Below are positions 31,929 to 34,761 of a stretch of 64,000 nt of DNA, one piece after another (the stretch's first letter is position 1; every line of letters begins with the position of its first letter). This stretch comes from Myxococcota bacterium. Its GTDB lineage: Bacteria > Myxococcota_A > UBA9042 > PHBI01 > JAWLBL01. Both the position numbers and the translations under genes were made by a program. Location of the stretch: assembly GCA_041687695.1 (NCBI GenBank), contig JAWLBL010000016.1:104722-168721 (forward strand), read 5' to 3'. The notes under the pieces are model-generated. The model saw only the letters and a program-made list of their open reading frames with translations. It was not told where the DNA came from and ran no database searches.

Positions 31929-33481
31929 GCGCCTGCGCCGCCTGCGGGGCCGCGCCGAGGCCCGGCGCCCGCTTCTGCGGCCAGTGCGGCGCCGCCACGG
32001 CGGGCGAGGTGCTCGACGCGCCGGCCTGCCCGACCTGCGGCCGTGTCTCGCGCGGCGGCCGCTTCTGCGGCGGCTGCGGCGCCTCGCTCGACGCTCCGCA
32101 GACCGCCACCGCCCGCCCCGCAGCGGCCGGGCCCGTGCTCTACGTCGCCCCGGCCGCGCTGCGCGGCGCGCTGGAAGGCGCTCTGCTGACCGCCCTCGCC
32201 GGCCCCAACCGCGGCCGCGTGCTCTGGGTGGCCCGCGACGACGCCCTGTCCGCCACCCAGGCCGCCCTGCGCGACCCGTCGGCGTCCCCCGATGCCGTCT
32301 GCCTGGTCGGCGACGCCGAGGCGCTGCCCCACGCGCGCCTGCCCGACCCCTGCGGCTACGACGAGGCGCTCTGGACCGACGCGCTCTACGGCATGCGCTC
32401 CACACCCACCGCCGAGGCCCGCCTCGCCGGCGACGTCCTGCCCGACCTCCCGGTCGCCCGCCTGCCCACCCGCGACCCGGCCCTCATCCGCCGCCTCCTG
32501 CGCGTCGGCGCCACCCTCTCGCCGGGCTGGGCCTCCGCCGCCGCCGTCTCGGCCGCCGTCTGGGCCTCCGCCTCCTCGGCCGTCCTCGACGCCGCCGGCG
32601 CCGCCACCCCCTGCGTCCTGGCCCCGCCCTCCGATCGCCCCGCCGTCCGCGCCGCCCTGACCGCCGCCCCCGCCCGCCTGTACTTCAACGTCCACGGCAC
32701 CGATCAGGACGCCGTCTGGCTCGGCGAGGGCGACGGCCGCTACCCCGAGGTCCTCCGCCCCGCCGATCTCGCCCCCCACGCGCCCACCGGCGCCCGCGTG
32801 GCCCCCGACGCCGTCGTCTTCAGCGAGGCCTGCTACGGCGCGACCCTCCAGGACGGCCCCGGCTCCCTCGCCCACGCCTTCCTCGCCGCCGGCGCCTCCT
32901 GCTTCGCCGGCTCGACCGTCATCGCCTGGGGCGCCGGCCCGGGCCACCCGCCCGCCCTCGCCGACGAGCTGGCCCTCGGCTTCTTCCGCCACCTCGACGC
33001 CGGCCTCCCCGCCGCCCGCGCCCTGCACCAGGCCAAGGCCGACCTCGCCGACGCCGCCCTCAGCGGTGGCGGCGGCCTGTCCGCCCCGCTCCACAACACC
33101 CTGCTGTCCTTCGCCCTGTACGGCGCCCCCCTCGCCAGCGTCTCCGCCCCCGCGCCGCGCGCCGCGCCCCCCCTCGCCCCCCTCGCCGACGCCCGCGCCC
33201 GCCTCCAGCGCCGCCTCCGCCCCGCCGACTGGCGCCTGCTCACCTCGGGCCGCCTCGATCTGGCCGCCCTGCAGGCCCACCTCGCCCACGCCCCCGGCGT
33301 CTCCGCCCGCCTCGCCGCCCTCCTCGGCGCCCCGCCCGCCGACGCCCGCGTCCTCCGTTACGGCGCCGGCCCCGCCGCCCGCGCCACGGTCCTCGCCTCC
33401 GCCGCCGGCCCCGTCCCCCGCCGCGTCGCCCTCGAGCTCGACGCCGCCGGCCACCTCCTGCGCGCCCTGGTCAGCCGATGA
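31925..33481 (+). CDS. Zinc-ribbon + caspase/gingipain (C25/CHAT)-fold cysteine peptidase
   Basis: Two RFC-x2-CG ribbons; VCLVGD..LP, TDALYG, VARLP (C25-like N-part); LYFNVHG and FSEACYG catalytic dyad; F.LYG.P end motif. Confidence 0.75.
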   Translation: MSACAACGAAPRPGARFCGQCGAATAGEVLDAPACPTCGRVSRGGRFCGGCGASLDAPQTATARPAAAGPVLYVAPAALRGALEGALLTALAGPNRGRVLWVARDDALSATQAALRDPSASPDAVCLVGDAEALPHARLPDPCGYDEALWTDALYGMRSTPTAEARLAGDVLPDLPVARLPTRDPALIRRLLRVGATLSPGWASAAAVSAAVWASASSAVLDAAGAATPCVLAPPSDRPAVRAALTAAPARLYFNVHGTDQDAVWLGEGDGRYPEVLRPADLAPHAPTGARVAPDAVVFSEACYGATLQDGPGSLAHAFLAAGASCFAGSTVIAWGAGPGHPPALADELALGFFRHLDAGLPAARALHQAKADLADAALSGGGGLSAPLHNTLLSFALYGAPLASVSAPAPRAAPPLAPLADARARLQRRLRPADWRLLTSGRLDLAALQAHLAHAPGVSARLAALLGAPPADARVLRYGAGPAARATVLASAAGPVPRRVALELDAAGHLLRALVSR

Positions 33482-34761
33482 GGGCCTTCGTCGTGGCTGG
33501 CCTCGGCTTCGGCGACGAGGGCAAGGGCACCCTCACCGACTACCTGGTCCGCCGCCACGGCGCCCGCCTCGTCGTCCGCTACGGCGGAGGCCCGCAGGCC
33601 GCGCACCGCGTCGTCACCCCCGGCGGCCGCGTCCACGTCTTCGCCCAGCTCGGCAGCGGCGCCTTCGTCGACGGCGTCCGCACCCACCTCGCCGCCCCGA
33701 TGATCGTCGACCCGCCGGCGCTGTTCGCCGAGGTCGCCGCCCTCGCCGCCGCCGGCGTCCCCGGCCCCTTCGACGCCCTGTCCATCGACCCCGCCTGCGT
33801 CCTGCTCACCCCCTGGCACCAGGGCCTGGGCCGCCTGCGCGAGCTGGCCCGCGGCCCCGCCCGCCACGGCAGCTGCGGCCGCGGCGTCGCCGAGGCCCGC
33901 CTCGACAGCGAGAACCCCGGCCTGCCCACCCTGCGCCTCGCCGACACCACCGACCCCTGGCGCCTGCGCGCCCGCCTGCGCTTCATCCAGGCCACCAAGG
34001 TCGACCAGGCCGAGCAGCTCGTCGATCGCCAGCCCGACCGTCCGGATCTGCAGGCCGGCCTCGTCGACCTCCGCCGCCCCGACCGCCTCGAGCCCTACGC
34101 CCAGGTCTGCGAGGCCCTGCTGGCCCGCGTCACCCTCACCGCCGCCCCGCCGCTGCCGCCCGTCACCGTGTTCGAGGGCGCCCAGGGCGCGCTGCTCGAC
34201 CGCGATCACGGCTTCTGGCCGCACGTCACGCCCAGCCGCGCCACCTTCGCCGACGCCCTGGCGCTGCTGGCCGCCTGGGCCCCGGACGCCCACGTCACCC
34301 GCGTCGGCGTCCTGCGCGCCTACCACACCCGCCACGGCGCCGGCCCCCTCCCGACCGAGGACCCGGCGCTGACCGCCGCCCTGCCCGACGCCGACAACGC
34401 CGACCACCCCTGGCAGGGCGCCTTCCGCGTCGGCTGGTTCGACGCCGTCCTCGCCCGCTACGCCCTCGCCTGCGTCGGCGGCGTCGATCGGCTGGTCGTC
34501 ACCTGCCTCGATCGCTTGGCCGATCACCCCGCCCCGCGCCTGTGCGACGCCTACGCCCTCGGCGACCGCCGCCTGACCGACCTCGCCCCGGCCTCCGACC
34601 CCGCCGATCGCGACGCGCTGACCGCCTCCCTGCGCGCCGTCCGCCCGCTGCTGTCGCCCGCCCCCGACCTGCTCGCCGCCATCGCCCAGGCCCTGGGCCG
34701 CCCGGTCGATCTCGCGTCCTATGGGCCCACCGCGACCGACAAACGCGAACTCACTGAATGA
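33478..34761 (+). CDS. Adenylosuccinate synthetase-like protein (divergent PurA paralog)
   Basis: GLGFGDEGKG, RYGGGPQAAH, HGSCGRGV, FEGAQGALLD, TRHGAGPLPTE, RVGWFD, SYGP; ATGA overlap with the upstream gene. Confidence 0.9.
   Translation: MRAFVVAGLGFGDEGKGTLTDYLVRRHGARLVVRYGGGPQAAHRVVTPGGRVHVFAQLGSGAFVDGVRTHLAAPMIVDPPALFAEVAALAAAGVPGPFDALSIDPACVLLTPWHQGLGRLRELARGPARHGSCGRGVAEARLDSENPGLPTLRLADTTDPWRLRARLRFIQATKVDQAEQLVDRQPDRPDLQAGLVDLRRPDRLEPYAQVCEALLARVTLTAAPPLPPVTVFEGAQGALLDRDHGFWPHVTPSRATFADALALLAAWAPDAHVTRVGVLRAYHTRHGAGPLPTEDPALTAALPDADNADHPWQGAFRVGWFDAVLARYALACVGGVDRLVVTCLDRLADHPAPRLCDAYALGDRRLTDLAPASDPADRDALTASLRAVRPLLSPAPDLLAAIAQALGRPVDLASYGPTATDKRELTE

Follow-up and report, generated by a model that had tools for sequence, protein, structure and literature searches.

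A conserved clade of adenylosuccinate synthetase paralogues with a replaced aspartate loop: candidate GTP-dependent ligases with a predicted vWA partner

The protein described here, P0001, is a member of the adenylosuccinate synthetase (PurA) family encoded in the genome of a Myxococcota bacterium (assembly GCA_041687695.1), in a stretch of 64,000 nucleotides from contig JAWLBL010000016.1 (positions 104,722 to 168,721) that is referred to below as the window. Sequence comparisons place P0001 in a distinct clade of the adenylosuccinate synthetase superfamily, apart from canonical PurA and from the phage enzyme PurZ. The most likely role for P0001 is that of a GTP-dependent ligase that functions within a heterocomplex and employs some nucleophile in place of aspartate. 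At a probability of roughly 0.6, we read it as the catalytic component of a module that is conserved but uncharacterised and also comprises a kinase-like protein and a vWA protein. In PurA chemistry, GTP drives the activation of a ring oxo group, which is then attacked by an amine. To our knowledge, this chemistry has been described for only two sets of substrates, inosine monophosphate (IMP) plus aspartate in PurA and deoxyguanosine monophosphate (dGMP) plus aspartate in PurZ.

The assignment of P0001 to the PurA family is secure. The Pfam model PF00709 matches residues 5–417 over model positions 1–410 of 416 with a score of 208.4 bits (E = 2e-61), and the family match is thus far beyond chance; a search of the ESM Atlas with P0001 returned PF00709 clusters only. 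Third-position GC in the reading frame is 0.93–1.00 over positions 33451–34650, and the GC content of the window is 73.8%. The motifs that an earlier, sequence-only reading of this DNA had listed are all present in the translation: GDEGKG at residues 12–17, GGPQAAH at 37–43, HGSCGRGVAE at 130–139, EGAQG at 233–237, TRHGAGPLPTE at 284–294, and NADHPWQGAFR at 307–317.

Residue equivalences, given in E. coli numbering, were taken from HMMER alignments of P0001 to two solved PurA chains, 3hid_A (E = 2.8e-38) and 1cg3_A. D13, K16, H41, Q224, T239, and D333 are retained, among them Asp13 and Lys16 of the GTP P-loop, His41, and the guanine-reading Asp333. Elsewhere the alignment reveals the substitutions N38Q, T128S, T129C, R143L, V273H, and K331C. 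N38, T129, T239, and R143 are presumably the residues of E. coli PurA that contact the 5′-phosphate of IMP; P0001 has Gln, Cys, Thr, and Leu at these positions, and T239 is the only member of the set that is kept. The loop that contains T300, T301, and R305, which we take to be the L-aspartate loop of the E. coli enzyme, is rebuilt as well. Its pattern G-x-T-T-G-R-x-R is replaced in P0001 by H-P-W-Q-G-A-(gap)-F, with the exchanges T300W, T301Q, R303A, and R305F and the deletion of R304. These alignments uphold the earlier claim that the residues for phosphoryl transfer have been retained and the aspartate loop exchanged. According to PMC8342488, R303 of E. coli PurA touches both the O2′ of IMP and the substrate aspartate; the accessible part of PMC6136348 does not set out residue roles for E. 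coli adenylosuccinate synthetase.

P0001 is not the housekeeping enzyme of its genome. Its scores lie below the NCBIfam equivalog cut-offs for PurA (181.2 against 402 for NF002223, and 147 against 395.55 for TIGR00184), and a genome search locates a canonical purA on another contig (C11:174855–176108), with a PF00709 score of 572 bits compared with 206.8 for the window gene. P0001 is therefore not the only PurA of the genome. Nor is it PurZ: it has Asp where the PurZ of phage phiVC8 has Ser, and the PurZ model NF038379 gives it 49.8 against a cut-off of 300. Both distinctions had been drawn from the motifs alone, and the tree agrees with them. In an IQ-TREE quick search on 96 rows under LG+G4, a branch of length 0.87 with a support of 100 in the Shimodaira–Hasegawa-like approximate likelihood ratio test (SH-aLRT) separates 78 subfamily rows and three phage proteins (from Gizmo, phiTY18, and RHph_Y65) from 11 canonical PurA proteins, the phiVC8 PurZ, a protein of phage Sucha, and two archaeal-type or short forms; the exact placement of PurZ and of phiTY18, which lie on long branches, is unsure. 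Seven loci that are partial, frameshifted, or fused (L010, L053, L056, L071, L082, L027, and L088) and six duplicate loci were left out of the tree.

The tree neighbours of P0001 are proteins of Polyangia and other Myxococcota, and the nearest row, from locus L008, is 62% identical. A search of 40 relatives from its order or class turned up a protein of subfamily level (171–347 bits, 43–51% identity) in four: G004, G006, G013, and G016. The remaining matches in these relatives score 153 bits or less, and the seven of them that were placed in the tree are canonical. The gene is thus accessory and patchily distributed. A short PurA-type protein of 343 residues is encoded in a Saccharibacteria genome (G041, C24:15663–16532); it was matched in two pieces by the genome search and scores 144.8 against the cut-off of 300 with the PurZ model. 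That genome also carries the PurA-like paralogue.

The clade to which P0001 belongs is large. A protein search with P0001 found at least 120 relatives, with 346–479 bits and 43–60% identity among the matches listed. When each species was scanned through a single genome, 457 of 598 candidate stretches were confirmed, and the best 80 loci were kept for analysis. They derive from Myxococcota, Planctomycetota, many phyla of the candidate phyla radiation (CPR), Woesearchaeota, Leptospiraceae, Acidobacteriota, and other groups, and all 80 are closer to P0001 (tblastn, 122–336 bits) than is the genome's own canonical PurA (104 bits).

Conservation within the clade extends to the replaced positions. 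In 81 aligned rows, Q40 and H53 are found in all 81, H286 in 79, R317 in 77, N307 in 76, Q313 in 73, W312 in 71, and C133 in 67. In a cleaner alignment of 56 rows, D13, E14, K16, H43 (the equivalent of E. coli H41), Q40, H53, H286, N307, R317, and D345 (the equivalent of D333) are invariant, and Q236 (the equivalent of Q224), W312, and Q313 are present in at least 90% of the rows. The conservation of the replacement residues across the family indicates that a new pocket has been selected for, which speaks against decay. A signature of Q40, H53, R-H-G-S-C-G, TRHG, and an N-x4-W-Q-G-x-F-R loop characterises the clade, and all of its elements occur in P0001.

These observations make it very improbable indeed that P0001 is an additional, regulated isozyme of adenylosuccinate synthetase, one that continues to join IMP to L-aspartate but binds the aspartate in another way. 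In favour of such an isozyme are the full-length homology to PF00709 and the source records, which annotate relatives as adenylosuccinate synthase. However, T300, T301, R303, and R305 of the aspartate loop have all been replaced, and the replacement is conserved; the equivalog scores are under half of the cut-offs; and the clade is separate from canonical PurA. Genome content argues in the same direction. Canonical PurA and the paralogue are both present in Uabimicrobium and in one Leptospiraceae genome. In the Moraniibacteriota genome G045, a complete chromosome of 1.29 Mb, the paralogue is the sole match to PF00709, and no purB candidate was found with a model that was positive in 14 of 14 control genomes. 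Adenylosuccinate would thus be a dead end in this organism, and its gene content speaks against a role of the paralogue in AMP synthesis. The gene order at this locus (L069) is NadD-like, PRK-type kinase, J-domain kinase-like, vWA, pyruvate-kinase-barrel-like, and PurA-like, followed downstream by genes for a TPM-domain protein, PspA, a NadD-like protein, and NAPRTase.

The neighbourhoods of the 80 homologues were compared by clustering all open reading frames (ORFs) within 7 kb, with GC-rich loci resolved by third-position GC. A vWA protein of about 490 residues, or a short form of about 325, is encoded at 62 of the 80 loci (53 of the 64 for which 4 kb or more is available upstream), and a kinase-like protein at 42 (38 of the 64). 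A third protein, of about 310 residues, is encoded directly upstream at 28 loci (23 of the 64); it is called pyruvate-kinase-barrel-like on the basis of matches to Pfam PF00224 that range from 24.7 bits, under the 30-bit cut-off, to 47.9 bits.

The vWA protein of the window is 54–65% identical to the partners at four other loci (L004, L016, L022, and L073). It has no match in Pfam or NCBIfam. D64, T66, and S68, which form a motif of the metal-ion-dependent adhesion site (MIDAS) type, are invariant in 32 rows of the partner family. An AlphaFold2 model built from this 32-row alignment, with a predicted local distance difference test score (pLDDT) of 78.6, retrieves integrin beta I-like/vWA domains in Foldseek (E = 4e-9), along with chain 8s05_B of ArnAB (E = 4.9e-8). 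In a library-wide phmmer search with the partner, the number of cluster representatives was 322 for a threshold of E ≤ 1e-30 and 3189 for E ≤ 1e-10. The beta-sandwich domain in the middle of the protein (residues 229–377) also occurs by itself in unrelated architectures of about 700 and about 950 residues, for example at positions 400–585 of proteins of 667–729 residues, and looks like a mobile domain.

The kinase-like protein of the window, P0123, matches the Pfam Pkinase model with 34.6 bits and is 47–59% identical to the kinase-like neighbours at L004 and L073 (41–59% over partners elsewhere). It is probably a pseudokinase, because the Asp of the HRD motif has been replaced. The same holds for nearly the whole family: in 41 rows the beta3 Lys is found in 39 and the alphaC Glu in all, while the position of the HRD Asp is occupied by Asn in 27, Ala in 11, and Asp in one, so that the catalytic Asp is missing from 40 of 41. 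The vWA and kinase-like genes are each single-copy in the genome at the similarity tested by tblastn.

The partners bear on two further explanations. The first holds that P0001 is a direct salvage aminase, which would phosphorylate IMP (or GMP or XMP) with GTP and use ammonia or another small amine in place of aspartate, so that a single step would lead to AMP or to an adenylate substituted at N6. In essence this is the proposal of the earlier reading, shifted from signalling to metabolism; that reading had suggested a purine nucleotide as the putative acceptor, an amine as the nucleophile, and a possible signal or modified base as the product. The residues responsible for the chemistry and for reading the base of IMP (D13, H41, Q224, T239, and G127) are kept and the Arg residues that hold the aspartate carboxylates are gone, as expected for such an enzyme, and one-step conversion of IMP to AMP would be physiologically sensible in a CPR genome that lacks purA and purB. 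We nevertheless consider this explanation unlikely: the 5′-phosphate contacts N38, T129, and R143 are altered, a plain salvage aminase would have no need for a dead kinase or for a vWA partner that is constant, its occurrence in some 200 mycobacteriophage genomes would be unexpected, and the source genome already has purA. According to the second, P0001 makes no product but binds GTP, a nucleotide, or both and relays its state to a scaffold of vWA protein and pseudokinase and to a protease. The signalling and scaffold folds of the partners (vWA, a kinase fold without its catalytic Asp, and SPFH) and the rebuilding of both substrate pockets fit such a switch. It is improbable, however, since none of 56 rows varies in the catalytic base (Asp13), the acid (His41), Lys16, or the P-loop of the Mg site, a constancy that would not be expected if the protein had only to bind.

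A physical association of P0001 with the vWA protein is predicted by modelling. The two chains were co-folded in three runs with a separate alignment for each, and the interaction prediction score from aligned errors (ipSAE) was 0.68, 0.70, and 0.68, compared with 0.00 for the best of three controls. At least 60% of the contacts are common to the runs, with a pLDDT of 73–74 for the partner. Among solved complexes, 116 of 157 attain the mark applied, compared with 2 of 215 among mismatched pairs, a calibration that is rough here, own alignments having been used. These predictions favour a putative complex of P0001 with its vWA partner.

The predicted contacts on P0001 fall at residues 146–150, 161–184, and 199. 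The first of these segments aligns with K140–R144 of E. coli PurA, which we take to be part of the homodimer interface, and R143 presumably extends into the IMP site of the adjoining subunit; the solved mutant chain 1cg3 departs from the wild type at this position. Because the vWA protein is predicted to dock on the segment through which PurA dimerises, we propose that it may stand in for the second PurA subunit. A heterocomplex of this kind would also suit a protein-modifying ligase that acts, with the help of GTP, on a protein side chain, whether in the vWA partner or elsewhere, and such an enzyme could account for the loss of 5′-phosphate contacts and for the conserved His, Cys, Trp, and Gln in the new pocket. 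It is decidedly unlikely, however, since the predicted interface at 146–184 is distant in sequence from the P-loop and Asp13 and no MIDAS residue is among the listed contacts. We know of no member of the PurA family that acts on proteins.

The genes of the window are collected in Table 1. Two genes upstream of the enzyme gene on the same strand appear to form an operon with it. The stop codon of the caspase-like gene overlaps the start of the PurA-like gene as ATGA, and the two are predicted to be translationally coupled. The caspase-like protein matches the Pfam models DZR (30.4 bits), Peptidase_C25 (29.1 bits), and CHAT (18.2 bits, below the cut-off); its His-Gly and Ala-Cys-x-Gly motifs are conserved in the homologue at L008, with 58% identity. 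The SPFH-type protein, the start of which was placed at the Met that matches its homologues, scores 75.4 bits with DZR and just 17.6 bits with Band_7. Its AlphaFold2 model (7 rows, pLDDT 68.7) resembles prohibitin most closely in Foldseek (8rrh_A, E = 1.5e-5), followed by HflK/C, stomatin, and flotillin. In eight related loci, a gene of SPFH type immediately precedes the one for the PurA-like enzyme. At seven loci of Polyangia type (L004, L005, L006, L010, L032, L036, and L073), the kinase-like and vWA genes are divergent from a zinc-ribbon/SPFH and PurA-like pair.

Table 1. Genes and other features of the window, numbered from its first nucleotide
Feature	Coordinates	Strand	Length (aa)	Remarks
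UvrA-like ATPase	2–3718	−		Runs past the window end
Small J-domain protein	8572–9099	+		
Clostripain-family (Peptidase_C11) protein	12465–15239	+	924	Second clan-CD peptidase of the window
vWA-fold partner	19674–21146	−	490	D-x-T-x-S MIDAS-type motif, beta-sandwich, helical tail
Kinase-like protein P0123	21167–22852	−	561	N-terminal zinc ribbon; HRD Asp replaced (H-G-N)
ORF between the module halves	23686–26625	+	979	No Pfam match
Histidine kinase/response regulator pair	26720–29037	−		
SPFH-type protein	29200–31653	+	817	Zinc ribbons, SPFH (prohibitin/stomatin-like) domain, long coiled coil, C-terminal zinc ribbon
Caspase-fold (clan CD) peptidase-like protein	31874–33481	+	535	N-terminal double zinc ribbon; His274-Gly/Cys320 pair
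PurA-like enzyme P0001	33478–34761	+	427	Catalytic core kept, aspartate loop rebuilt; ATG to TGA
Two CrtC/lipocalin-type domains fused to a polyprenyl synthetase	34758–37091	+	777	Assigned by Pfam; ATGA overlap with the PurA-like stop
Short-chain dehydrogenase/reductase (SDR)	37099–37938	+		Assigned by Pfam
NAD-dependent epimerase-like protein	37935–39020	+		Assigned by Pfam
WYL/WCX regulator beside a protein with a weak Cas3_HD match	40878–42830	+		Cas3_HD match sub-threshold (20.7 bits)
Run of very large ORFs	47096–63998	−		ORFs of 2329, 1420, and 876 aa without a Pfam match
ORF within this run	58854–63857	−		RHS repeats, TcdB_toxin_midN, FG-GAP

The overlap of the PurA-like stop with the start of the CrtC fusion implies that these genes are cotranscribed in the window. 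No homologue of the CrtC fusion, the SDR, or the epimerase-like gene was found in the 80 related loci, and the CrtC/polyprenyl-synthetase fusion probably lies outside the module, being co-operonic in the window only. A link to isoprenoids, in the form of a terpene-nucleoside pathway composed of the downstream genes, was considered and dropped, none of these genes having a homologue in the 80 loci. A scan of positions 28900–39200 for promoters and terminators found none, a result that is uninformative at 74% GC. PADLOC-DB 2.0.0 contains no match for the PurA-like, vWA, SPFH-type, or caspase-like proteins; its only hits, for P0123, were generic kinase-domain matches, and a known anti-phage defence system was accordingly rejected. 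For the 979-residue ORF, the ESM Atlas gave only weak leads, none above 0.86, and these pointed to myxococcotal clusters of MopE-type metal-binding character. Frames overlap in the run of very large ORFs at the end of the window, so that the gene calls there are unsure.

In other phyla the module occurs in a setting of NAD salvage. A cluster of NrtR-like or NadE/NadD-like neighbours is present at 21 of the 80 loci, and NrtR is confirmed by Pfam at 13 loci (NUDIX plus NrtR_WHD; the WHD only at L071). Other Pfam-assigned neighbours include nicotinamidase-type isochorismatases, NAPRTase, NAD kinase, ADP-ribosylglycohydrolase, and NadE-NadD fusions. These loci belong to CPR phyla, Planctomycetota, Acidobacteriota, and other groups; at the Polyangia-type loci no NAD genes were seen. 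At 21 of 80 loci, the NAD neighbourhood is not a universal feature of the module. Given this association, the chemistry of the module may nonetheless concern nucleotides related to NAD or ADP-ribose.

Several observations weigh against our interpretation of P0001. The link to NAD is missing from the source genome: NrtR_WHD was not found in this assembly, which is 99.3% complete, no NAD gene appears among the Pfam matches of the window, and none adjoins the module, so that NAD regulation was rejected for this organism. The partner genes lie 12.3 kb upstream of the enzyme gene on the opposite strand, separated from it by a glyoxalase gene, the 979-residue ORF, and the histidine kinase/response regulator pair, with about 6 kb inserted; co-regulation in the window is thus not established. 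A pyruvate-kinase-barrel-like partner was sought in this genome by tblastn and none was found, and a caspase-like homologue stands beside the enzyme at just one other locus of the 80, L008. P0001 itself deviates at three sites that are typical of the family (H44 is Arg, the Cys after H53 is Val, and G138 is Ala), and the W-Q-G motif is degraded in a sister subclade (L026, L032, L036, and L073). The tree was a quick search under LG+G4 with long branches, and the co-folding value expresses the confidence of a model. The acceptor, the nucleophile, and catalysis itself are read from conserved residues, and the roles given to the E. coli residues other than R303 follow the structural work of Honzatko and Fromm.

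Phages have also acquired the enzyme. P0001 is matched by 238 phage records, of which 201 are Mycobacterium phages. In the PHROG collection, P0001 corresponds to phrog_1211 (215.6 bits), the vWA protein to phrog_2971 (157.1), and the kinase-like protein to phrog_3043 (103.9). In phage Gizmo the gene order is kinase, two hypothetical proteins, and a PurA-like protein that carries the W-Q-G motif. The PurA-like proteins of Bxz1-type (cluster C1) mycobacteriophages (phrog_1211) belong to the clade of P0001 and have the W-Q-G-x-F-R loop, TRHG, and kinase and hypothetical neighbours. They differ from P0001 in their P-loop, G-D-A-G-K-G, and the phage locus lacks SPFH and caspase-like genes. In the literature searched, these phage proteins have an annotation only, and no function was found for them.

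Comparison with characterised systems helps to delimit the clade. With PurA (EC 6.3.4.4), P0001 shares a full-length fold family, GDEGKG, Asp13, Lys16, His41, Gln224, TR-G-GP, and Asp333; it differs in the replaced aspartate loop, in N38Q, T129C, V273H, and the loss of R143, in its separate clade, and in not being the housekeeping copy. Unlike PurA, the clade has a constant vWA partner, which is predicted to dock where PurA dimerises. PurZ of the Z-genome phages phiVC8 and S-2L is likewise a re-tooled enzyme of the PurA family that occurs in phages. The phiVC8 enzyme, however, has the P-loop G-S-T-G-K-G, with Ser at the Asp13 site, where P0001 has G-D-E-G-K-G, and the branch with an SH-aLRT of 100 puts it together with the canonical proteins, though on a long branch whose exact place is unsure. 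PurZ uses dGMP, aspartate, and ATP and retains the aspartate-contacting loop, as stated in PMC8342488, whereas P0001 does not retain it. Family names of the datZ, mazZ, or dpoZ type are absent from the Pfam scans of the window ORFs, in which no search was aimed at those genes.

The combination of a MIDAS-type vWA gene beside a kinase-fold gene, with zinc-ribbon proteins nearby, is reminiscent of ArnA/ArnB (PDB 8s05) and presumably of the TerY-type triads, although we know of no PurA-family enzyme in either. Unlike the vWA and Ser/Thr-kinase pairs of signalling systems, the module has a kinase-like component in which 40 of 41 rows are without the catalytic Asp. The module resembles the phage NAD+ reconstitution pathways NARP1, NARP2, and NARP3 in lying among NrtR and NAD-salvage genes at 21 of 80 loci and in occurring in large phages, but the enzymes of those pathways are different (Adps/Namat, NAMPT/NMNAT, and PnuC/NadR), and the module in the source genome has no NAD link. 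Adenylosuccinate synthetase is not mentioned in the literature on phage NAD+ reconstitution that was searched. In the accessible part of PMC10892097, the gene tables of Vi01-like phages have no more than entries for a vWA protein and for an adenylosuccinate synthase marked as putative. No description of the clade or of a kinase-like/vWA/PurA-like module was found in the literature searched, beyond whose reach lies paywalled work.

A mechanism in keeping with a ligase that does not use aspartate can be outlined. P0001 would bind GTP-Mg and phosphorylate the oxo group of a nucleotide-like acceptor, for which the half-site that recognises the base of IMP appears to be partly retained. A nucleophile other than L-aspartate would then displace the phosphate. 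The vWA protein, docked on residues 146–150 and 161–184, would form a heterocomplex with the enzyme, and the kinase-like protein may regulate or scaffold this complex. In the source genome, the enzyme gene appears to share one operon with those for a zinc-ribbon SPFH scaffold and a zinc-ribbon caspase-like protease, an arrangement that suggests that the product or the state of the enzyme is coupled to a proteolytic response to stress or conflict. A more specific version, in which the heterocomplex makes a GTP-activated adduct derived from a purine or from NAD or ADP-ribose and this product or state switches on a caspase-like protease held by the SPFH protein, is quite unlikely as it stands. 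If true, it would represent a new kind of nucleotide-signalled proteolytic system for conflict or stress, with an enzyme core that phages have also acquired.

The clade as a whole appears to keep the chemistry of PurA, to dispense with aspartate, and to gain a partner that looks obligatory, and it has spread through Myxococcota, Planctomycetota, CPR bacteria, DPANN archaea, and some 200 mycobacteriophage records. The substrates, once found, would extend nucleotide metabolism by a new reaction and might account for the retention of the module beside an NAD-salvage regulon in ultrasmall bacteria and large phages. The myxobacterial form, in which the enzyme gene appears to be coupled to a protease gene, offers an additional handle on function.

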